Shown here: in pieces, positions 143 to 10,603 of the stretch
Layout of the letters: the number at the start of each line of letters is the position of its first letter
How positions within the stretch are numbered: position 1 is the stretch's first letter
Assembly: GCA_964508365.1 (NCBI GenBank)
Contig: CAZDTP010000091.1
Span: 1-11,192 of the forward strand
Direction of reading: 5' to 3'
Origin: an uncultured archaeon
GTDB lineage: Archaea; Asgardarchaeota; Lokiarchaeia; Sigyniarchaeales; SOKP01
DNA length: 11,192 bases
Translations under genes and position numbers: made by a program
The notes under the pieces: model-generated
Told to the model about the DNA's origin: nothing
Database searches by the model: none
What the model saw: the letters and a program-made list of their open reading frames with translations, nothing else

Positions 143-173
143 TGCAAAAAATTATACTATATTTGTTTAAATA
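143..173 (+). promoter_or_regulatory. Conserved upstream motif copy 1 plus TATA-like box
   Basis: TGCAAAAAATTATACTATA at 143-161 (16/19 to consensus); TTTAAATA at 166-173 (+23); 85 nt before the start at 228. Confidence 0.7.
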
Positions 174-227: not shown

Positions 228-506
228 TTGTTGTTTGAAGAAAAGAAGAAACCAGAAAAGAAGAAAAAGAAATTTGGAAAGACCAAATTGATTGCTTTCC
301 TTATTTTGCTGCCTATAGTATCGTTATTAGTCACTTTGCTGATCTTAGCAATCCCTTACGGTATTGCTACTAGGTTGGGGGTGGGGATGGAAGATTACTG
401 GACATATATTTTCCAAAATGGGTATTTCTGGCCTACCTTTGGTGTGGTTTTACTCGTCTCTCCTATAATCACAGCTATCTTGTGGATGGTCGTAGCGAAT
501 TATTGA
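228..506 (+). CDS. Small two-TM membrane protein; stand-alone copy of the C-terminal module of the LRR protein at 8324-10468
   Basis: 92 aa, TTG start, Lys-rich N-terminus then two hydrophobic helices. TKLIAF...SPIITA is identical to the end of the 714-aa protein. It has its own copy of the upstream motif. Confidence 0.7.
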   Translation: MLFEEKKKPEKKKKKFGKTKLIAFLILLPIVSLLVTLLILAIPYGIATRLGVGMEDYWTYIFQNGYFWPTFGVVLLVSPIITAILWMVVANY

Positions 507-605
507 TTTTAAAACGAAAAATGTCCTAATACCAAAAAAAATCAGAGAAACTAAGTTAATTATGATTGAAATCAAAATTATTGAGTAAAAATTCGTCAAA
601 CTTAC
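285..605 (+). repeat. Left copy of long direct repeat (partner 10247-10567)
   Basis: 285-466 matches 10247-10428 at 181/182 nt (one synonymous C/T at 309/10271). 467-605 stays collinear without gaps at about 72% (39 mismatches in 139 nt, hand count). Confidence 0.97.
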
Positions 606-890
606 GAAAAAGAATGCAATTGCTCCCAAAATGGTGAATGTAATGTCGCTTCCTGAATTTACTACACTATCTTTTTTTTTATTAAATTTTACATAAGCTC
701 TCAAGAAATTGCTATTTTCGATTATTTCCCATAAAACACTTATGAACAAAATTAATAATAAGCTTATAAATAATGGGATAAAGAGGATGAAGAAAATCAT
801 GTGTAATACATAACCTTTGAGAAAATGTCCCAAGCTAAAAGGGTCAACTGCCGCAATGCCGTAGTCTTCCTTGGTCCGTGCGATAATCAT
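450..890 (-). CDS. DUF2585-like integral membrane protein
   Basis: 146 aa, about 4 TM segments, with D-x-x-S-x-x-H (DPFSLGH), WE-x-x-EN (WEIIEN) and DS-x-x-NS-x-x-D (DSVVNSGSD) motifs as in DUF2585 (recognised by motif, not searched). 3' end overlaps the 228-506 gene by 57 nt. Confidence 0.8.
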   Translation of the reverse strand: MIIARTKEDYGIAAVDPFSLGHFLKGYVLHMIFFILFIPLFISLLLILFISVLWEIIENSNFLRAYVKFNKKKDSVVNSGSDITFTILGAIAFFFVSLTNFYSIILISIIINLVSLIFFGIRTFFVLKSIIRYDHPQDSCDYRRDE

Positions 891-930
891 GCTATATCCT
901 TTAAATTTTAATCCATTTTATACCGTATTG

Positions 931-961
931 TGCAAAAAATTCTACCTTATTTTTTTAAATA
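931..961 (+). promoter_or_regulatory. Conserved upstream motif copy 2 plus TATA-like box
   Basis: TGCAAAAAATTCTACCTTA at 931-949; TTTAAATA at 954-961 (+23); 77 nt before the ATG at 1008. Confidence 0.8.
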
Positions 962-1007
962 CATAACTTACTATGATTTATATAAAGAACCTTAAGTTGT
1001 TTAAAAA

Positions 1008-2411
1008 ATGTATCGAAAACACAAAATAATAAAAATTGCCTTCATTGGATTGCTTTTAGCAGTAGTATTTGGTCTAGCGAATAATCAATTAATTAGATGC
1101 GAAGGTGAAAAGCAACCATCCGAAAATTTTGAACTACAAACAGCAAATTCAGGAAATTCAGTTCAATATGAATGGAATCGTACATGGGGAGGTGTTGATG
1201 TTGATGATGGTTGGGTTGTGGCGGTTGATTCATCAAAAAATATATATCTTGCGGGAGAGACAATGAGTTATGGGGTCGGAGAACAAGATATGGTACTAGT
1301 GAAATATGACGGAAACGGCGTGCAGCAATGGAATCGTACGTGGGGTGGAGTAAATTTTGATCGGTGCTTAGGAGTCGCGATAGATTCGTCTGATAATTTG
1401 TATCTTGCAGGATTTACGTATAGTTTCGGGGCGGGAGATTCAGATATGGTACTTGTGAAATATGACGGAAATGGCATGCAGCAATGGAATCGTACATGGG
1501 GTGGAGTTGGTTCCGAAGTTTGTGTTGGGGTAGCAGTGGATTCCTCAAATAACACATATCTTTCAGGATATACCAATAGTTCTGGGGCAGGATTTGACGA
1601 TATGCTTCTAGTGAAATATGATCTAAACGGTGTGCAGCAATGGAATTGCACATGGGGTGGAAATAATGATGACTTGGCTTATGAAATAGCATTAGATTCT
1701 TCAGATAATATTTTTGTCGTAGGGAAGACAGAAAGTTTTGGAGCAGGAGGCGAGAATATATTTTTAGTTAATTATGATGGAAACGGCGTGCAGCAATGGA
1801 ATCGTACATGGGGCGGAGATGATGATGATGCTGCCTATGGAATAGCTTTAGATTCTGCAGATAATATTTATATATCGGGAAAAACAGAATCTTTTGGTGC
1901 GGGACTTCGGGATTTTGTTCTTGTCAAGTATGATAGTTCTGGTATTCAACAATGGAACCGCACCTGGGGTGGAGGCTTACCGGATTATAGCAATGGAGTA
2001 GTAACAGATTTGTCTGGTAATGTATATCTTGTAGGAGACACATTTAGTTATGCCCTAAATCCAGGAAGTAGCGATATTGCTTTAGTGAAATATGATGGAA
2101 ACGGTGTAATGCAGTGGTATCGCACGTGGGGCGGAGATTCCTGGGATTTGGGTAAAGCAGTGGCGATAGATTCATCTGGCAATGTATATATTGGAGGATT
2201 TACTTATAGTTTCGGAGTTGGAGCTTGCGACATGGTTTTAATAAAATATAAAGCAGAATCTACTTCTACAGGCATTTCAAGTTATAATCTAGTCATAATT
2301 TTAGGAGTTTTAAGTATCAGCAGTTTTTTCTTGGTTAAAAAAATAATGTCCAAAAAAACTAAATTATCGAGATTAACAGCCCAGATTATAAACTTTTATT
2401 CGTCTCGGTGA
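1008..2411 (+). CDS. Surface protein with seven SBBP-type beta-propeller repeats and a Loki-CTERM-like C-terminal anchor
   Basis: 467 aa. N-terminal basic plus hydrophobic signal; seven repeats of W-N-R-T-W-G-G...D-S-S-x-N-x-Y-x-x-G-x-T-x-S...D-x-x-L-V-K-Y-D; C-terminal ISSYNL, TM helix and KKIMSKK (from 2271). Confidence 0.95.
   Translation: MYRKHKIIKIAFIGLLLAVVFGLANNQLIRCEGEKQPSENFELQTANSGNSVQYEWNRTWGGVDVDDGWVVAVDSSKNIYLAGETMSYGVGEQDMVLVKYDGNGVQQWNRTWGGVNFDRCLGVAIDSSDNLYLAGFTYSFGAGDSDMVLVKYDGNGMQQWNRTWGGVGSEVCVGVAVDSSNNTYLSGYTNSSGAGFDDMLLVKYDLNGVQQWNCTWGGNNDDLAYEIALDSSDNIFVVGKTESFGAGGENIFLVNYDGNGVQQWNRTWGGDDDDAAYGIALDSADNIYISGKTESFGAGLRDFVLVKYDSSGIQQWNRTWGGGLPDYSNGVVTDLSGNVYLVGDTFSYALNPGSSDIALVKYDGNGVMQWYRTWGGDSWDLGKAVAIDSSGNVYIGGFTYSFGVGACDMVLIKYKAESTSTGISSYNLVIILGVLSISSFFLVKKIMSKKTKLSRLTAQIINFYSSR
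1173..2249 (+). repeat. Seven intragenic tandem units, 156-bp period (propeller blades)
   Basis: The TGG of the W-N-R-T-W-G-G motif starts at 1173, 1329, 1485, 1641, 1797, 1953 and 2115 (five 156-nt steps, then 162 nt). Confidence 0.95.
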
Positions 2412-2482
2412 TAATAGGAATAATTGCGCTGATCGGAATCGTCACGATTATAGTTTGGAATAAAAGATCTCGATCAAATTAG
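2363..2482 (+). pseudogene. Startless out-of-frame relic of a C-terminal membrane anchor
   Basis: The -1 frame relative to the SBBP gene reads IIEINSPDYKLLFVSVIIGIIALIGIVTIIVWNKRSRSN* between TAA (2360-2362) and TAG (2480-2482): about 21 hydrophobic residues, then a basic tail. Confidence 0.7.
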
Positions 2483-2489
2483 TTAATCC

Positions 2490-2497
2490 TTTTTTTT
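2490..2497 (+). terminator. Oligo-T putative archaeal terminator
   Basis: T8 tract 8 nt after the relic anchor stop codon. Confidence 0.5.
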
Positions 2498-2599
2498 AAA
2501 TTTTAGTTAATTCTAAGAATAAATAATCAAAATCTAAATTCTCTGAAAATCCGTAGTAATTAATTATATGAATGGGCTTTATAGCAATTTTCTTTTTAA

Positions 2600-2632
2600 T
2601 GCAAAAAATTCTACCTTAACTTTTTTTATATT
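2600..2632 (+). promoter_or_regulatory. Conserved upstream motif copy 3 plus TATA-like box
   Basis: TGCAAAAAATTCTACCTTA at 2600-2618 (identical to copy 2); TTTTTATATT at 2623-2632; 141 nt before the ATG at 2741. Confidence 0.75.
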
Positions 2633-2740
2633 ATAGGTGGATTAATTCAAGTAAAGAATTAGATTTTTTTAATTCTCTAAATATAAATTAAAAACTCTGA
2701 AAAAAGTGAAATCTAAGCATATTAAAATGAAGTCTTATAT

Positions 2741-3250
2741 ATGGCTCAAATCGAGAAGAAAGCTAGGCCACAATATCTCGGGAAAGTAATGAAGGGAGTT
2801 GGCGTTTTAACTCTGTTAAGTATAGTTCTTCCATCAGCTGTTCAAACGGGATCTGGAGTATGGAATTTATTGTGGTATATTGGTATTTTTTGGGGAGGAA
2901 CTGTTTATGGTGAACAATTTATAGGTTTTATTAATGATGCTTGGTACATGCCAATTGGAGTAATTACAATGGTTTTATTAATTATCGCATTAATATTTAT
3001 CGCTATATCAGCTAGAAATATAAACAAGGAGAGAAATTACAAATTAGCCACAGGAATGAGTTTATTTGGCAGTATTTTAGCCATTATTAGTCCAATTGTA
3101 TATTATTTCTATTTGAATGCAGAAATGTTTTGGGATCTATATCTTCCTGTAAGTATATTTCTTTCAATCATAGCAGGAATCTTAGGAATCATATGTGCTA
3201 TCATGGTTGGGTTTACTTCTAAATTAAGATCAAAATCAGGTGAAAAGTAG
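2741..3250 (+). CDS. Four-TM membrane protein of unknown function
   Basis: 169 aa, four hydrophobic segments, basic N- and C-termini, longer aromatic/Gly-rich loop after TM1 (WNLLWYIGIFWGG). Confidence 0.85.
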   Translation: MAQIEKKARPQYLGKVMKGVGVLTLLSIVLPSAVQTGSGVWNLLWYIGIFWGGTVYGEQFIGFINDAWYMPIGVITMVLLIIALIFIAISARNINKERNYKLATGMSLFGSILAIISPIVYYFYLNAEMFWDLYLPVSIFLSIIAGILGIICAIMVGFTSKLRSKSGEK

Positions 3251-3268
3251 AATAAAGAGGAAATTATA

Positions 3269-3305
3269 ATTGGGATTTTTCCCAATACCTTTTTTTAATT
3301 TTTTT
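3269..3305 (+). terminator. Hairpin plus T-tracts downstream of the 4-TM gene
   Basis: ATTGGGA-TTTT-TCCCAAT (7-bp stem, 3269-3286) followed by T7 at 3290-3296 and T7 at 3299-3305. Confidence 0.65.
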
Positions 3306-3412
3306 ATGACCATAGAATTTGAAAATAAATATTTAAAAATTAAAAGTTAATTTTATGGCTTAAAAAATCCTAGTAAAATGGTGATTAGTACCATTATTAA
3401 TCATGTAGATAA

Positions 3413-3443
3413 TGCAAAAAAACCTACCTTATTTGATTATATA
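3413..3443 (+). promoter_or_regulatory. Conserved upstream motif copy 4 plus TATA-like box
   Basis: TGCAAAAAAACCTACCTTA at 3413-3431 (17/19); ATTATATA at 3436-3443 (+23); 83 nt before the ATG at 3496. Confidence 0.8.
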
Positions 3444-3495
3444 GCTAATATGATTAAAGTTGATTAATAATAATTAAGACATACTAGGATAAATA

Positions 3496-5730
3496 ATGAA
3501 AATGAAAAGAGATAAAAAGAAAAATTTAATCACATTCGCAATGATGATATCTTTATTAATTACGATTATGTCACCAGCTTTCTTTACAAATGAAGAAAGA
3601 GAGCAGGATTTATTCAAATTCGGGGGTGACGGAGGGATGAAGCCAAAAACATCTTATTATGAGTGGTACCAGACTACTATGAATGTTCACTCCTATGTTA
3701 CTGGATTTCATGTTGCAGACGCTAATAATGATGGTTACAATGATCTTGTACTTGCTAACGGAAATAATAAAACAGCTTCTATTTTAATATGGAATGAATC
3801 AATGCTTTCTTGGAATGAAGAAATAATAAAAGAGTTTGGAGAAACGGTTGATGCTATTATTATTGAAGATGCAGATAATGATGGTTATAATGATTTAATT
3901 GCAAGGAACTCTGATAATTTAACAATATTATTGTGGAATGATATTTCAAAAGACTGGATAGACAAGATCCAATTTCAAATAGAAATCTATATTGTATATA
4001 ATTATATAGATAATTTCGCTGTAGAGGACGCAAATAATGACGGTTATAATGATATAGTTGTGAATGACGAGTATGAAAGCGAAATATTCTTTTGGAATAA
4101 TACAATTGATGATTGGAATGATCCCATTTTCGATGATGGTCTTGGAATAAGTTTAAATATAAAGGATGCAAATAATGATGGTTTTAATGATTTAATCGCC
4201 TATCACCCATGGAACGGTAATCCTGGTAGGAATAGGGTTATTATAAGATTGTGGAATTCTTCAATAGGGTATTGGGATCCTGAATTTAATATCACGGTAG
4301 CAGAGGATGATATTTCAAGTCTTTTTGTTGAGGATGTTAATAACGATGGCTATAATGATATTATAACTACTAACTACGAGCACTCTTTTCCATCCGAAAA
4401 CAAAATTTCCATTCGACTTTGGAATGAACATACTCAATATTGGGATCCTCTATTTACGAAACCAATTGAAGAAGCTAGTTCGATCAGTTCTGGAGATGTT
4501 AATAATGATGGCTATAGTGATATTATATTATATGGTGAAGCTTATATAAATTACCACTGGGAGGATGTAATTTTCATTTTAATATGGGATGACGAAATTA
4601 AAAACTGGAAAACTCCTGTTAATAAGATCATAGACAACCCAGAAGTTCGTCCTGGTCCAATAGTTACGGATGTGGATAATGATGGAGATTATGATATTGC
4701 TTTTTTAAGCTCTGGTAATGACGAGATCACTTTCATTTTATGGGAATTTTTCGATGTGTATAGTCCCATTGTTAATATACATGATCCACTCGATGGAGAT
4801 GTCTTTTATTACGGTCCACCGAGTTTTTTTGTAGAAGTATCAGATAGTAACTCCTCTATTGATTCAATGTGGTATAGTCTTAATGGAGGAATTACAAATT
4901 ATACATTTTATGATAATGGGACTATAAGCCTAGAAGCATGGGAGGCTGTATTGGATGGGACTGTTAAAATTACATTTTATGCAAACGATACAGAAGGAAA
5001 CATAGGGTTTAATGAAGTTACTGTATATAAAGACATGCATCTTCCCAGTCTACAATTTAATTCTCCATATTGGAATATTACCTACTCAAATTTCTTGCCT
5101 ATAGATTTTTCCTTTAATGATGACACTTTAGATGAAATCAGAATTATTATGGATAATTCACCAGAGGTTAATTATTCCGTATATCCTTATTTAGATTATG
5201 CTAATATTCTCGGAAGATGGCAAAATTTAGATGACGGACAAATTAGTATCGAATTTCACGCAAAAGATATACTGGGAAAAGATAACATATATGTTTTTGT
5301 TGTCAATAAAGACACTACTGCTCCTGTTATTACAATCAATTCTCCAAAACAATATGATAAATTTTGGGAGGATTCTCCTCATTTTGATATATCTATTGAA
5401 GAGCCTAATTTGGATAGTGTGTGGTATGAAATAGAAATATTTTATTATAAATCTGCTAATTTTAGTATAACAGAATTAACTGGAAGTGTTGATAAAGGTT
5501 TCTGGGATTCTTTAGGCGATAATTACCTTGGTTCATCATGCAGAATAACTTTTTATGCTAACGATACCCTTGGACATCTGAGTTCTAAATCTGTAGTGAT
5601 TAATCGAGAGGTTCCAGGACCATCTCTTTCTGAACTAATTATCTTGAGCTCTATTATTGGTGGAGTAGTGGTAATAAGTATCGTAATTTACTTTTCGATA
5701 AAACAAAGGCTTAAGAAAAGAAAAACATAA
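3496..5730 (+). CDS. Surface protein: seven FG-GAP/VCBS-like repeats, three Ig-like domains, C-terminal TM anchor
   Basis: 744 aa. Signal segment; seven D-x-[ND]-N-D-G-x-x-D motifs; three repeats of about 95 aa of the type P-x-I-x-I-x-x-P...W...DG...ITFYAND-x-x-G; TM helix and KQRLKKRKT. Confidence 0.95.
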   Translation: MKMKRDKKKNLITFAMMISLLITIMSPAFFTNEEREQDLFKFGGDGGMKPKTSYYEWYQTTMNVHSYVTGFHVADANNDGYNDLVLANGNNKTASILIWNESMLSWNEEIIKEFGETVDAIIIEDADNDGYNDLIARNSDNLTILLWNDISKDWIDKIQFQIEIYIVYNYIDNFAVEDANNDGYNDIVVNDEYESEIFFWNNTIDDWNDPIFDDGLGISLNIKDANNDGFNDLIAYHPWNGNPGRNRVIIRLWNSSIGYWDPEFNITVAEDDISSLFVEDVNNDGYNDIITTNYEHSFPSENKISIRLWNEHTQYWDPLFTKPIEEASSISSGDVNNDGYSDIILYGEAYINYHWEDVIFILIWDDEIKNWKTPVNKIIDNPEVRPGPIVTDVDNDGDYDIAFLSSGNDEITFILWEFFDVYSPIVNIHDPLDGDVFYYGPPSFFVEVSDSNSSIDSMWYSLNGGITNYTFYDNGTISLEAWEAVLDGTVKITFYANDTEGNIGFNEVTVYKDMHLPSLQFNSPYWNITYSNFLPIDFSFNDDTLDEIRIIMDNSPEVNYSVYPYLDYANILGRWQNLDDGQISIEFHAKDILGKDNIYVFVVNKDTTAPVITINSPKQYDKFWEDSPHFDISIEEPNLDSVWYEIEIFYYKSANFSITELTGSVDKGFWDSLGDNYLGSSCRITFYANDTLGHLSSKSVVINREVPGPSLSELIILSSIIGGVVVISIVIYFSIKQRLKKRKT
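3718..4700 (+). repeat. Seven FG-GAP-like Ca2+-binding repeat units
   Basis: Motif starts at 3718, 3868, 4027, 4165, 4333, 4495 and 4669 (DANNDGYND, DADNDGYND, DANNDGYND, DANNDGFND, DVNNDGYND, DVNNDGYSD, DVDNDGDYD); similarity is also visible at DNA level. Confidence 0.92.
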
Positions 5731-5739
5731 CTCAACAAC

Positions 5740-5756
5740 TTTTATTTTTTTATTTT
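5740..5756 (+). terminator. T-rich terminator between convergent genes
   Basis: TTTTATTTTTTTATTTT in the 33-nt gap between the stops at 5730 and 5764. Confidence 0.55.
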
Positions 5757-5763
5757 GGAATAC

Positions 5764-7068
5764 CTATAAATCTAATTTTTTAGTTTCAGAATCAGATTCA
5801 TTTTCAAGAGCTTCGTCCTTCTCTTTCAATTCTTTATAAAGCTTTTGGAAGTCTTCTGTAGTTAAGAACGGAGATTTAGCAAGCTCGAGTTTGATCTGTT
5901 CATATTCTGTTTCATCTGGGATAATGTTTTTTAATTCGTTTTCTAACTGTTTAGGTATATTAACCTGACTTTTTAAAAGCAAAGGTTGCCTGTAGCTTGT
6001 AAACATCCGAGATGGAAAATTAGAAAAGTACTTTTGAACAAGCGTATAAGCGTTCTTATATTTACTCGTATCCTTTTCGTTAGAAATTAGTTGTTTTTGG
6101 AACATTGATTCAAACTCTAACGCAAACCCACTCAATGCGTCTCTAACTAATTTTGAAGATTTTGACGAAATAAGCCCAATTGTAATGTATTTTGATTCGT
6201 GCATTAAAAGTACGCCCTCCTGAAGATGGATATCCAATAGCCCTCCTTTATGTAAAACTTCTTCACTCATGATCTGAATAGCATTTATGAATCCCGCGAA
6301 CATGACTTCACTCACGTCAGATTCGGACCAATGGTGATCGAAGAGCAAAAAACCCTCTTGATCCTTTACAGATATTCGATATAAAGTGAAAGGGAGGACA
6401 TAAATCAGTTGTGGTTGATACACTAACATGGAAGCAACAATCAGCGCTCCTACTCCAATGGAGAGGTTAGAAAAATGGATGAGAAATGGAAAAAATACAT
6501 TCATTAAATAGAAGATGGTAGATCCAATTGATGCAGTGCAAGTACCAATAAAAAAGATAGCTGATTCTCGCTTAATTAAGAAAGGAGAGTTCTTCCAGGT
6601 AATATAGCCCCAGTATAGGAGATATATCGGTAATATTGTCGATATGATTAACGCTATAATTTCAAAAGGACCTCTCCACGCAATAGTTAGAACCCCTTCT
6701 TCGATCACAATGACAATCGATTCAGGTTGGAAAACTAGATAGCAATATAAAACGACGATTCCAAACACTAATATCAACCCTCTTGAATAAATGATTTCTT
6801 TCTTAACATAATTAATGCAAAAAATAAGAAATAGGGTGGGAAAAATCAGTGTGAGTGCGTGAATGATGTTGATCGTCTTGTTTAAAAACAGATTAGATAA
6901 CCCCTCTATATAAAAAAATAAGGCTAAAAAGTTCCATGTTAACCGAAGGAAGAATATGGCTCGTATATTTCTCAGTTCCTTAGACCGAAATGTGTATATA
7001 GCCGTGAATAGAAGAATACTCCCCGTGATAAAAGTTGAGATTACATAAATAGTCCAGTTCAACACCAT
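5764..7068 (-). CDS. Seven-TM protein with cytoplasmic longin-like domain
   Basis: 434 aa. Seven hydrophobic helices in residues 1-220, then a beta-beta-alpha-beta-beta-beta-alpha pattern typical of longin-like folds (RISVKDQEGFLLF...FAGFINAIQIMSEEVL...LISSKSSKLVRDALSGFALEFESMF), then a charged helical tail. No H-box or ATPase motifs. Fold call is by pattern only. Confidence 0.85.
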   Translation of the reverse strand: MVLNWTIYVISTFITGSILLFTAIYTFRSKELRNIRAIFFLRLTWNFLALFFYIEGLSNLFLNKTINIIHALTLIFPTLFLIFCINYVKKEIIYSRGLILVFGIVVLYCYLVFQPESIVIVIEEGVLTIAWRGPFEIIALIISTILPIYLLYWGYITWKNSPFLIKRESAIFFIGTCTASIGSTIFYLMNVFFPFLIHFSNLSIGVGALIVASMLVYQPQLIYVLPFTLYRISVKDQEGFLLFDHHWSESDVSEVMFAGFINAIQIMSEEVLHKGGLLDIHLQEGVLLMHESKYITIGLISSKSSKLVRDALSGFALEFESMFQKQLISNEKDTSKYKNAYTLVQKYFSNFPSRMFTSYRQPLLLKSQVNIPKQLENELKNIIPDETEYEQIKLELAKSPFLTTEDFQKLYKELKEKDEALENESDSETKKLDL

Positions 7069-7071
7069 TTT

Positions 7072-7764
7072 TTAGGCCTCCTTCTTGACAATAGCTAATT
7101 GAGAACCTTCAAAGACTGATTTTAACATTTGGTGGACAGTGGTACTAATACATATCAAACCATTATCCTTAGTTACCAGTAGACCACAATTTTCTAATTC
7201 CTTCAAGTGGTAATATATGGTTTCACGGGTTTTTCCCAGTTTTTCGTATATTAAGAGCTTTTCAATGCATTCCTGATCAATAAACAAATAAAAAATATTT
7301 TTGTTAGTATTATCTCGCAATAAAAAATACAAAAGTCCATGTTCATCATCAATATTACTAGGAACGAATATACTATAATTTTTAAAAGAAATTTTTTTGA
7401 TATAATTGAATTTAATTAACATGTCGAGATGCCAAACCAATTGACCTGTGCTTCCCATCTTTTTAGCGTAAAATTTTCTTTTTAGAGCGGAAAAATGAAT
7501 CCCTTGATTATAAAGTATGATCTGGAATAAATAATTTCTAAATTGATTGTCTAAAACCGAATCCCGCGTAAATTTGGAACCATCAACCAGAAATTTATTA
7601 TCAATCAATAATTGAATGATTTGCAAGAGTCCTTTTCTCGGTATTTTTAACCTTCTTTTTGCTCTTTGATATAGGGTATGTGTGTCGAGAAATTTATTTT
7701 CATTCGCAATCTCTTCTGCGATTTCTAATACATCTTGCACGCTGGGATGTTCCAAAGAGAGCAT
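7072..7764 (-). CDS. Winged-helix transcriptional regulator with multiple wHTH domains (COG3398-like)
   Basis: 230 aa. N-x-G-I-H-F-S-x-L...GQLVWHLDML and RETIYYHLKELENCGLL resemble the two HTHs of COG3398, plus an extra N-terminal helical domain. The stop is 3 nt from the ATG of the 7TM gene, so they are probably one operon. Confidence 0.85.
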   Translation of the reverse strand: MLSLEHPSVQDVLEIAEEIANENKFLDTHTLYQRAKRRLKIPRKGLLQIIQLLIDNKFLVDGSKFTRDSVLDNQFRNYLFQIILYNQGIHFSALKRKFYAKKMGSTGQLVWHLDMLIKFNYIKKISFKNYSIFVPSNIDDEHGLLYFLLRDNTNKNIFYLFIDQECIEKLLIYEKLGKTRETIYYHLKELENCGLLVTKDNGLICISTTVHQMLKSVFEGSQLAIVKKEA

Positions 7765-7843
7765 GATACACCACAGAGAAGGAAAGATTGAATTTTACTA
7801 GTTAGTAATAGTTGACTTTTTAGTAAATAATTGAATTTAATTC

Positions 7844-7851
7844 TATTTAAA
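7844..7851 (-). promoter_or_regulatory. TATA box of the regulator operon
   Basis: The minus strand reads GCAAGAAAGC-TTTAAATA (purine-rich BRE-like run then TATA), 80 nt upstream of the ATG at 7764. Confidence 0.5.
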
Positions 7852-7858
7852 GCTTTCT

Positions 7859-7889
7859 TGCAAAAAATCCTCCCTAATGAATTTAAATT
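7859..7889 (+). promoter_or_regulatory. Conserved upstream motif copy 5 plus TATA-like box
   Basis: TGCAAAAAATCCTCCCTAA at 7859-7877 (16/19); TTTAAATT at 7882-7889 (+23); 60 nt before the ATG at 7919. Confidence 0.75.
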
Positions 7890-7918
7890 AGCTTAATTTA
7901 ATCACAAGTTAACTGAGA

Positions 7919-8167
7919 ATGAAAAAACACGTTAATTATCAATACTTCTTCAGTTTAATTTGTACGGTATTCGTTGTAGTTGTAGCTATTTTCATTCTTT
8001 CCTTCACCATCTTGAGTTCTTTCAGTCAGTCTAGCGAATACCCTGCCATTTATGGATACAATTTGGAAATTCTGATATTTATTTTCTCCCTAATTTCCAT
8101 TATAACCATACTCTATTGCAGATCAAGAATTAAATATTCACCACCCAATATCAACCAATATCAATAA
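7919..8167 (+). CDS. Mini-protein: N-terminal TM/signal fused almost directly to a Loki-CTERM-like anchor
   Basis: 82 aa. Hydrophobic helix, short linker (SFSQSSEY), PAIYGYNL, second helix, CRSRIK basic tail; has its own upstream motif. Confidence 0.75.
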   Translation: MKKHVNYQYFFSLICTVFVVVVAIFILSFTILSSFSQSSEYPAIYGYNLEILIFIFSLISIITILYCRSRIKYSPPNINQYQ

Positions 8168-8186
8168 ATTTGGAGTTAAAGAGTAA

Positions 8187-8219
8187 TGCAAAAAATCATA
8201 CCTTATAATTATTTATACA
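8187..8219 (+). promoter_or_regulatory. Conserved upstream motif copy 6 plus TATA-like box
   Basis: TGCAAAAAATCATACCTTA at 8187-8205 (17/19); TATTTATACA at 8210-8219; 137 nt before the TTG at 8324 and only 20 nt after the previous stop. Confidence 0.75.
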
Positions 8220-8323
8220 AATATGTAATCCTAATGTGTAAAAAACACTAGTTAAAATATATCTAAAATGAAGTATTAAAAAAAAATCAATTTTAAAGTA
8301 AATATTTAGGTAGATTTTCCATT

Positions 8324-10468
8324 TTGAAAAGAAATATAAATAATTTAGTCTTGGTTGTTATGTTCTTTGGATTTTCCCTACTATTCATAAGTTCGTCATT
8401 AATCCTCAAAAACTATGAGAATAAACCACCATTTCAACCGATTGCTAGTGCGGGTGAAATTACTCTCCTTACTCCCGAGAATATCACCTATATAACTGGA
8501 ATGGATGGTTATTTTGCAGGCACCTATAGTTTCGAAAATGAAAATATCGGTTTTAATCCTTCAAATTGGAATGTATTTGAAGATGGTGGCTACGTGAATA
8601 TAAAGGATTCCTATTTAGGACATAATGAGGTGGTAGAATTATGTAAGAATTCTGGTGGAATTGTAAGTTGTCGAAATTTATTTGAAAACAAGACTAGTGG
8701 ATTAATTGAATTTTGGTTTTGCTCAAATAGAACAGATCAGGAATTTTTAATAAGGATCAGTGATGGAGAATTTTATGGTGGCAGGATTGAAATCAAATTT
8801 GGGGATGATGGTCAATTAAAGGTACTTGATGGTATTCAAATCTCGAATATTATTTCATATGTAGGAGATACTTGGTATCACTTAAAAATTGAGTGGGATA
8901 TTTTTCAGGGAGATTTTGATTGGAACTTAAGTTTGAATGATACAGAGGTTGGAACTTTTTCTTTTTACGGTAATCCTTTTAATCTCAATAGGATCATATT
9001 TAGTAGTGATATAAGTTCTCCTTCTGAGAATGCATATTTTTACATAGATGCAGTTGGTTATTCTTGGGATCAAGAATACGAAATTGGGGATAATCTATAT
9101 GAAGGATTATTGGTAAACTTTGAAACAACTTTGAGTTTTGAAACATTTTGGTGTGAATTAGATGGTATTCATTACAAGAATTTTATAGGGAACCATACAA
9201 TTCCAATGATACAATATGGCTCCCATTCCCTACAGGTTTTTGGAACCATATCTTCTACAACCTACTCTTCAAACATCGTTCATTTTACAACCTTGGTGGA
9301 TAGGTGGGGTCCATCAATAATCATTAAATCACCAGGTGAAAATAGTATCCATATCTTTAGGCCTCCTATATGTGAAATTGAAGTAAATGATCCCAATGGA
9401 GTAAATGCGACTTATTACATGCTCACATATGGAGGGGTATCCTCTTCACTAACGAAATGGGAAGGTTTTATCAATTCAGATGTCTGGAATTCAGCACCTG
9501 ATGGAGAGATAACCATTACTTTTTATTCTCAAGATGACCTTGGAAATTGGTCATGGAAAAGTATCACGGTAATAAGAGCTCTTAAGTTATTGATTCTAAT
9601 CATTGGATTACCCTTATTGGTTTGTATAGCATCACTAGGGATTTGGTTATTTTTGCGAAAAAGAAAGAAACTACGGGAAACTGTGGAAAACATGAGATAT
9701 GAGGATCTTCAAGAAAACATGGTGATCGTGAAAGGAAAGAAGTACAAAAACAAATCATTGGAAGGACTAACTTTGCGCAATCTTAAGATTTCCTATGTAG
9801 GTGAAATATTTGGGTTCGAACAGCTTTCAGAACTTAAGAAGTTAAACTTAGCTCAGAATAACCTGACCTCTATTAAGGAACTGGGACATAGCGAGAGCCT
9901 AACAGAATTGGATTTATCCCAAAACAAGATAGTAAACTTGTCAGGGATTGAGAAACTTACTAACCTGAAAGTTCTCTATCTAGATGAAAATAAGATTGTA
10001 GATATCTCACCAATATCGGGGCTTTCCCATCTTCAAATACTTCATATCAGACATAACGATCTTCCCACTTTGGATCCCTTATACGACCTAATTAACTTAA
10101 GTTCCCTTTGCATAGAAGGAAATTATAAGATCGTGTATTCTTGGGAAAATACCTTGTTCAAACGTCTTCGCTATCTTGATATCAGGCCAAAACCGACAGT
10201 TAGTTATCAAGAAAGCGATAAAGTAAAGAGTAAGAAAGGGAATACAAAATTGATTGCTTTCCTTATTTTGTTGCCTATAGTATCGTTATTAGTCACTTTG
10301 CTGATCTTAGCAATCCCTTACGGTATTGCTACTAGGTTGGGGGTGGGGATGGAAGATTACTGGACATATATTTTCCAAAATGGGTATTTCTGGCCTACCT
10401 TTGGTGTGGTTTTACTCGTCTCTCCTATCATCACCGCCTTTTTGTGGTTTGTTGTACAGGATTATTGA
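8324..10468 (+). CDS. Receptor-like membrane protein: extracellular LamG-like and Ig-like domains, TM, cytoplasmic leucine-rich repeats, C-terminal two-TM hairpin
   Basis: 714 aa, TTG start. N-terminal TM; about 390-aa beta-rich region; TM at about 9587-9655 followed by RKRKK; six LRRs at about 9758-10130, four of them exact 22-aa SDS22-like units (e.g. LTELDLSQNKIVNLSGIEKLTN); two more TM helices. Confidence 0.93.
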   Translation: MKRNINNLVLVVMFFGFSLLFISSSLILKNYENKPPFQPIASAGEITLLTPENITYITGMDGYFAGTYSFENENIGFNPSNWNVFEDGGYVNIKDSYLGHNEVVELCKNSGGIVSCRNLFENKTSGLIEFWFCSNRTDQEFLIRISDGEFYGGRIEIKFGDDGQLKVLDGIQISNIISYVGDTWYHLKIEWDIFQGDFDWNLSLNDTEVGTFSFYGNPFNLNRIIFSSDISSPSENAYFYIDAVGYSWDQEYEIGDNLYEGLLVNFETTLSFETFWCELDGIHYKNFIGNHTIPMIQYGSHSLQVFGTISSTTYSSNIVHFTTLVDRWGPSIIIKSPGENSIHIFRPPICEIEVNDPNGVNATYYMLTYGGVSSSLTKWEGFINSDVWNSAPDGEITITFYSQDDLGNWSWKSITVIRALKLLILIIGLPLLVCIASLGIWLFLRKRKKLRETVENMRYEDLQENMVIVKGKKYKNKSLEGLTLRNLKISYVGEIFGFEQLSELKKLNLAQNNLTSIKELGHSESLTELDLSQNKIVNLSGIEKLTNLKVLYLDENKIVDISPISGLSHLQILHIRHNDLPTLDPLYDLINLSSLCIEGNYKIVYSWENTLFKRLRYLDIRPKPTVSYQESDKVKSKKGNTKLIAFLILLPIVSLLVTLLILAIPYGIATRLGVGMEDYWTYIFQNGYFWPTFGVVLLVSPIITAFLWFVVQDY

Positions 10469-10567
10469 TTTTAAAACACTATATGCCCTAATACTGATAA
10501 AAAGCAAAGAAATTAGTCCAAGTATGAGAGAAATCACGATTATCGCAACGAAATTCATCAAACTCAC
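10247..10567 (+). repeat. Right copy of long direct repeat (partner 285-605)
   Basis: Constant offset of 9962 nt with no indels across 321 nt. Confidence 0.97.
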
Positions 10568-10603
10568 ATAAAATAATACTAGCATAAAGAGAAACGATAA
10601 CTC
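10412..10603 (-). pseudogene. 5'-truncated paralog of the DUF2585-like gene (or a 57-aa small protein from the ATG at 10585)
   Basis: Not in the ORF track. Reads MLVLFYVSLMNFVAIIVISLILGLISLLFISIRAYSVLKSIILYNKPQKGGDDRRDE*, 31/57 identical to the C-terminus of the 450-890 protein with the stop at the equivalent position. In-frame stop at 10604-10606; all conserved H/E/D motifs missing. Confidence 0.8.

Follow-up and report, generated by a model that had tools for sequence, protein, structure and literature searches.

A near-identical core within an older duplicated gene junction on an archaeal contig, probably kept alike by ectopic gene conversion

The window analysed here is the whole of contig C91 (11,192 nt), one of the 149 contigs of a 4.07-Mb draft archaeal genome (G000, GC content 32%). 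It carries a direct repeat in which the 3′ junction of two convergent genes occurs twice, 9,962 nt apart. On the left, a small gene for a two-helix membrane hairpin faces an intact gene for a DUF2585 membrane protein, and on the right, the hairpin forms the C-terminus of a leucine-rich repeat (LRR) protein and faces a fragment of DUF2585. We consider it probable that the two copies are old paralogs whose core has been kept alike by ectopic gene conversion, that the exactness of the identical run has been partly flattened by the assembly, and that the 10-kb block between the copies is not mobile. We infer the conversion and the collapse of an assembly bulge from coordinates, identities, gene content and synteny, together with a protein variant in IMG and the assembly-wide behaviour of repeats, all of which were observed directly.

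The repeat and its near-identical core

The whole homologous unit covers about positions 276–632 and corresponds to the convergent 3′ junction of the hairpin gene and the minus-strand DUF2585 gene. Its parts are the following.

276–632: left copy, full homologous segment; hairpin codons 17–92 and, on the opposite strand, the last ~60 DUF2585 codons
285–466: left near-identical core, 181/182 identical to the right core
467–605: left diverged tail, 72% identical to the right copy
10238–10594: right copy, homologous segment
10247–10428: right near-identical core

A script run on the window showed that 285–466 and 10247–10428 are identical at all but one of 182 positions. The sole mismatch, C/T at position 309, is synonymous in a leucine codon, and the longest exact run inside the core is 157 nt. 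Identity in the core significantly exceeds that in the flanking homology, where 467–605 matches the right copy at 100 of 139 positions. On the upstream side, six of the nine bases of 276–284 are identical; the mismatches at 278, 281 and 284 all fall on third codon positions of the plus-strand frame, and one of them (AAG/AAT) alters the residue from Lys to Asn. Identity over 228–284 is at the random level (21/57). There are no gaps across 276–605, and at the protein level the homology extends to about 632 on the minus strand. No third copy of the repeat was found in the 4.07-Mb assembly. An earlier reading of this DNA, made from the sequence alone, had reported the 181/182 identity, the drop to about 72% over 139 nt, the lack of indels, the 9,962-nt spacing and the three upstream codons that differ only at third positions, and every one of these figures proved exact.

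The tail is deeply diverged, with a number of synonymous substitutions per site (dS) of 0.69–0.85 in the DUF2585 frame and about 1.3 in the hairpin frame, and a ratio of non-synonymous to synonymous substitutions (dN/dS) of about 0.4. An ortholog of the left copy lies on metagenome contig L057 (2,572 nt, 61–85% nucleotide identity), which has the same upstream motif as the window, a 92-aa hairpin open reading frame (ORF) with the same N-terminus, DUF2585 and, farther away, an FG-GAP gene. In a three-way comparison of the core (285–466), the left and right copies share 99% identity with each other and 85% and 84%, respectively, with L057. The corresponding values for the tail (467–605) are 70%, 61% and 64%. 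With this one ortholog, the informative sites of the core unite the left and right copies against L057 at 28 positions, versus one and none for the two other groupings. The tail gives 26, 14 and 17, which is near a star, for about 130 sites and with no ortholog of the right copy.

When the divergence of the tail was scaled by the core/tail rate ratio calibrated on the ortholog, about 20 differences were expected in the core, and one was seen (Poisson P about 3e-8). Synonymous sites are homogenised as well, given that the single difference is synonymous and that L057 differs at 15% of core sites. With about 20 differences expected and one seen, synonymous sites included, we conclude that the core has been homogenised. 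Purifying selection at the protein level cannot explain it, since the identity extends to synonymous sites. The pattern in the tail suggests that the duplication dates from about the time when the L057 lineage split off.

Assembly behaviour and the loop variant

Dozens of contig ends across the assembly share overlaps of exactly 55 nt. Such overlaps are, by the SPAdes output format, the signature of a SPAdes-type graph with a final k-mer length (k) of 55, and from them k = 55 was assigned to the assembly. The ends of C91 overlapped no other contig of the assembly. The bin also contains redundant near-identical contigs, namely C62/C101 (7.1 kb, 98.4%), C106/C107 (4.6 kb, 94%) and C145/C146, and ribosomal protein S8e is present on both C62 and C101. 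The duplicated contigs and the double S8e indicate strain mixtures or redundant contigs.

We screened 67 repeat pairs of at least 120 nt each, among them pairs of 7.1 kb (113 differences) and 4.6 kb (266 differences). An isolated difference, or a cluster of differences shorter than 75 nt, flanked on both sides by at least 55 identical bases was absent from all 67. In many of the longer pairs a single long perfect run adjoins diverged sequence; C62/C101, for example, has its 113 differences confined to about 1 kb beside a 6,113-nt perfect run. Because so many repeat pairs in this assembly show it, the pattern of an identical core within diverged homology is partly a property of the assembly. 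In a k = 55 graph the 157-nt exact run is one edge used twice, and only differences between 365 and 411, a zone of 47 nt, can be hidden as a bulge. metaSPAdes masks bulges by design (PMC5411777).

A contig of 11,246 nt in the protein collection, with NCBI and Joint Genome Institute (JGI)/IMG as sources, encodes exact matches to the DUF2585, SBBP, 169-aa, FG-GAP, seven-transmembrane (7TM) and helix-turn-helix (HTH) proteins of the window. Its LRR protein, P0011 (702 aa, in both NCBI and IMG), uses an internal start and is identical over the compared residues 440–714. The left hairpin of this contig, P0001 (94 aa, present in IMG only), matches that of the window at every residue except in the loop, which reads MELENND versus VGMED and resembles the loop of the L057 ortholog. 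This difference maps to 381–395, in the middle of the 157-nt run, and 71 identical bases flank it on either side. Outside the loop, 63 of 63 residues of P0001 are identical to the window at positions where other family members differ. The IMG-type loop peptide is absent from the whole assembly. In the JGI workflow, k goes up to 127 (10.1101/2020.09.30.320929), which exceeds 71; the 71-base loop flank is itself longer than 55 and shorter than 77.

The loop variant thus looks as a collapsed bulge would: identical sequence of at least k bases flanks it on either side, and another version of the assembly shows it. Neither the exactness nor the continuity of the 157-nt run is reliable, and the unbroken core is probably such a bulge, with the true left copy keeping its own loop. 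Whichever loop is true, two blocks of at least 55 nt, and probably of 71–96 nt, are identical between the copies. Conversion, possibly patchy, stands as the putative cause because, when just two 71-nt identical runs are counted, P is still about 5e-8 under the expected divergence, and because the flanks of P0001 agree throughout.

These results bear on two proposals of the sequence-only reading. Its combination of an old duplication with a recent conversion tract is supported by the dS of the tail set against the near-identical core, but the exactness of that core depends in part on the assembly. It had also named assembler collapse of two diverged copies as the circumstance that would overturn it. 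The differing loop of P0001 in mid-core gives this some substance, yet collapse cannot make two identical flanks of at least 55 nt.

Genes at the two copies and relatives of the module

The genes and elements at the two copies are listed below.

143–172, plus strand: locus-specific promoter/operator motif, copy 1, upstream of the free hairpin gene; repeat family D7/D8
228–506, plus strand: free 92-aa two-helix membrane hairpin gene (left copy) with a TTG start, from the ORF list; stand-alone orthologs of 80–94 aa are P0001–P0004, P0132 and the L057 ORF
381–395, plus strand: loop codons VGMED of the left copy, replaced by MELENND in P0001; flanked on either side by 71 identical bases
450–890, minus strand: intact DUF2585 membrane-protein gene (Pfam PF10755, E 3e-9), with homologs in genus relatives
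8324–10468, plus strand: 714-aa protein with an N-terminal surface module, a transmembrane (TM) helix, cytoplasmic LRRs and a C-terminal hairpin (right copy)
10412–10594, minus strand: DUF2585 3′ fragment matching residues 87–146 at 53% amino acid identity; open frame of 63 codons, ATG ORF of 57 aa

The 92-aa ORF encodes a Lys-rich leader followed by the two-helix membrane hairpin. It is convergent with the intact DUF2585 gene, and the two overlap tail-to-tail by 57 nt (450–506) on opposite strands; in genus relatives the same gene pair lies about 20–40 nt apart. The 714-aa protein of the right copy looks like a fusion, in which residues 1 to about 450 form the surface module and residues 464–714 correspond to a gene of about 250 aa for an LRR-hairpin protein in relatives. 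Homologs of its N-terminal module are repeated within giant surface proteins of relatives. The protein collections yielded no second LRR fusion with this hairpin subtype. The 63-codon open frame of the DUF2585 fragment has a chance of about 0.6% at the local base composition, with dS of about 0.7–0.85 and dN/dS of about 0.4. Instead of being dead, the fragment may give rise to a small two-helix membrane protein.

The upstream motif is about 20 nt long, of the type TGCAAAAAA-N3-TAC-C/T-TTA, and stands upstream of a TATA-like box before every plus-strand gene of the window. Its copies lie at 143–172, 931–960, 2600–2629, 3413–3442, 7859–7888 and 8187–8216. Six of the eight strict matches in the 4.07-Mb genome fall within this 11-kb contig. 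In L057 the motif precedes the hairpin gene (149–180) and apparently also the FG-GAP gene (about 1542–1576). A local regulator, for instance the HTH gene at 7072–7764, probably uses it as its operator.

Ribosomal protein S8e marks the genome as archaeal, and its seven actin-family matches, four of which score about 300–430 bits, fit an Asgard-type archaeon. Five genomes of the same genus (L051, L052, L053, L054 and L055) carry a gene of about 250 aa combining LRRs and the hairpin, convergent with an intact DUF2585 gene. All five keep this module at one conserved chromosomal site, bordered by MeaB and a small Zn-ribbon gene, plus pirin in one of the genomes, and at the opposite border by a 222-aa protein and GrpE. 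Because the convergent pair is kept at a conserved site in five relatives, we regard the LRR-hairpin/DUF2585 junction as an old module. The equivalent site in the genome studied here (G000:C17:24216-28209) is without the module, and its gap between pirin and GrpE measures only 360 nt. The only DUF2585 and LRR-hairpin genes of this genome are the diverged ones on C91. The module proteins of C91 share only 30–38% identity with the versions of the relatives, which suggests that they are distant paralogs or a relocated, fast-evolving copy.

Stand-alone hairpins are rare. Besides that of L057, four or five of 80–94 aa are the sole other relatives among 15 billion proteins. An exhaustive HMMER search with the hairpin returned one clear relative cluster (80 aa) and two marginal matches, and word-index searches returned five stand-alone relatives and no other LRR fusion. 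No more hairpin copies were found in the genome, in 41 genus genomes or in 15 further genomes of the same order, and scans of genome contigs with the hairpin and with the 7TM protein gave no matches. Based on the synteny and motif of L057 and on the further stand-alone hairpins, the predicted free hairpin gene is taken to be real. The DUF2585 gene of L057 (567–760, minus strand) has an internal gap of 133 nt relative to the window and is broken into short ORFs, so that it appears to be decaying.

Explanations of the core and comparison with known systems

In the account that we favour, the ancestral state would have been a convergent pair in which a membrane-hairpin gene faced DUF2585, and the 3′ junction of this pair would have been duplicated long ago. 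In the left copy, DUF2585 would have stayed intact while the LRR part was lost, leaving a free hairpin gene with its own promoter; in the right copy, the LRR protein would have stayed while the 5′ two-thirds of DUF2585 was lost. The hairpin tail and the DUF2585 part would then have diverged almost to synonymous saturation, and non-reciprocal homologous recombination would have made the coding sequence of the TM helices alike again. The conversion tracts would leave out the final 13 codons, the remnant of DUF2585 and probably also the loop. A short paralog-specific patch in the loop, with 71 identical bases on each side, would have been projected away as a bulge at k = 55, and the true state would most likely be two identical blocks of about 71–96 nt around an unconverted loop. 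The hairpin would thus be made in two ways, as a free small protein from its own promoter and as the C-terminal anchor of the LRR protein.

Several points weigh against this account. The estimate of the duplication's age draws on about 140 nt, and the right, LRR-fused copy is without an ortholog in the databases, so that conversion may have run in either direction. P0001, as the comparison that is independent of the graph, differs in the loop and confirms the loop flanks at the protein level only. The IMG contig could come from a sister strain with an unconverted allele rather than from the same sample assembled at k above 71. If so, the window would be correct as it stands, with one recent conversion tract covering the whole core including the loop, and P0001 would represent a sister strain or a co-occurring allele unconverted in the loop, as a segregating polymorphism. 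With 71 identical bases on each side, the mechanism would readily allow a short patch of conversion across the loop; P0001 matches the window everywhere outside it, and the loop of P0001 is like that of the L057 ortholog, as expected of an unconverted allele. We nevertheless regard this as unlikely, if worth keeping in view. The sole difference between the contig versions over about 2,900 codons falls in precisely the 365–411 zone that k = 55 can hide, and since small internal differences survive in none of the 67 repeat pairs, the window carries no independent information on the left loop. A further, rather doubtful possibility gives the pattern a function. TM helices kept identical while loops and tails differ might reflect selection-favoured, patchy concerted evolution of a shared membrane-interaction module, with occasional deletion or amplification of the block or swaps of its ends, and with segregating conversion polymorphism. 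That the core is instead held alike by selection at the nucleotide level, on an RNA element or an antisense overlap and without recombination, is scarcely credible. The convergent 3′ ends do overlap, so that part of the region codes on both strands (450–506), but this overlap reaches only 450–466 of the core, and the dual-coding stretch 467–506 belongs to the 72% identical tail. The 15% divergence of L057 in the core shows that its sequence is free to change, and nucleotide-level selection was rejected as the cause of the identity on this ground.

The sequence-only reading had offered, as its other possibility, a Campbell-type integration of a circular 10-kb segment by crossover between diverged paralogs. 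In such an event, a circle of about 10 kb with the LRR-hairpin and DUF2585 genes would have recombined with a remnant of the hairpin on the chromosome. The core would then be a crossover or heteroduplex tract, and the block could be excised again. Joining the right to the left copy would indeed restore an LRR-hairpin gene facing an intact DUF2585, as in the relatives; the graph topology A-R-B-R-C also permits A-R-C (a 1.2-kb empty site) plus a 9,962-nt circle; and the ancestral site on C17, between MeaB and GrpE, is without the module here. We find this very improbable, and the evidence led us to set it aside. Scans of all block proteins against Pfam, PHROGs and NCBIfam and a tRNA check revealed no integrase, transposase, replication or partition gene and no tRNA, and the GC content of the block equals that of the genome. 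The left junction is old, as the free hairpin, DUF2585 and the motif are present in L057 at 15–39% divergence, and a plain crossover creates no identity. P0001, which joins the left N-terminus to the left tail, and P0011, which joins the LRRs to the right tail, show both junctions as assembled. No empty-site or circle-junction sequence was found in the assembly, and the only related contig, L057, has the 'integrated' left junction. The arrangement A-R-C plus circle was rejected as the main state on the junctions of P0001 and P0011 and the left order of L057. Two old module copies degenerating in complementary ways would explain the permuted order without a circle. The 9,962-bp block is ordinary chromosomal DNA with surface/membrane protein genes and a regulator pair, with no sign of mobility. 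The sequence-only reading reasoned fairly that recombination across the core could excise the block or amplify it, with an exchange of 3′ ends between the two hairpin genes, but there is no sign that this has occurred.

The main value of the case is a warning on how such repeats are read. In this k = 55 metagenome assembly each repeat combines a perfect core with diverged homology around it, so that steps in identity are not readable as recent recombination without the reads. The comparison also documents an old two-gene module, an LRR-hairpin gene facing DUF2585, in an Asgard-like archaeal genus, which on C91 is split into a free hairpin gene and a receptor-like fusion, with the TM helices staying alike. 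The alike helices hint that both proteins may use the same membrane partner.

Prophages and integrative elements can occupy sites with duplicated, diverged gene 3′ ends, as e14 does in icd of E. coli. As there, the direct repeat here is made of a gene 3′ end, its core is identical and its flanking homology diverged, and the block that it bounds measures about 10 kb. Unlike e14/icd, the block has no recombinase or element genes, the left junction is kept in a diverged relative, and the repeat includes a fragment of the convergent neighbour. The loop resembles the bulge projection of metaSPAdes, in which a short variant with identical flanks of at least k is replaced by an alternative path and the copies read alike (PMC5411777). 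Beyond that behaviour, two identical flanks of at least 55 nt here still need a biological cause.

Ectopic gene conversion, or concerted evolution, occurs between dispersed prokaryotic paralogs of the tufA/tufB type. We regard the present case as an instance of this known process, and it reveals no new mobile element or mechanism. It differs in that the evidence comes from a short-read draft assembly only, that the unit is the convergent 3′ junction of two genes rather than a whole gene, that the copies are of different kinds, a small free-standing gene in one case and the C-terminal domain of a large protein in the other, and that the tract is probably interrupted by the loop. It shares with the tufA/tufB type a near-identical tract, synonymous sites included, within older homology, same-strand copies on one replicon, and paralogs that group together against their ortholog.

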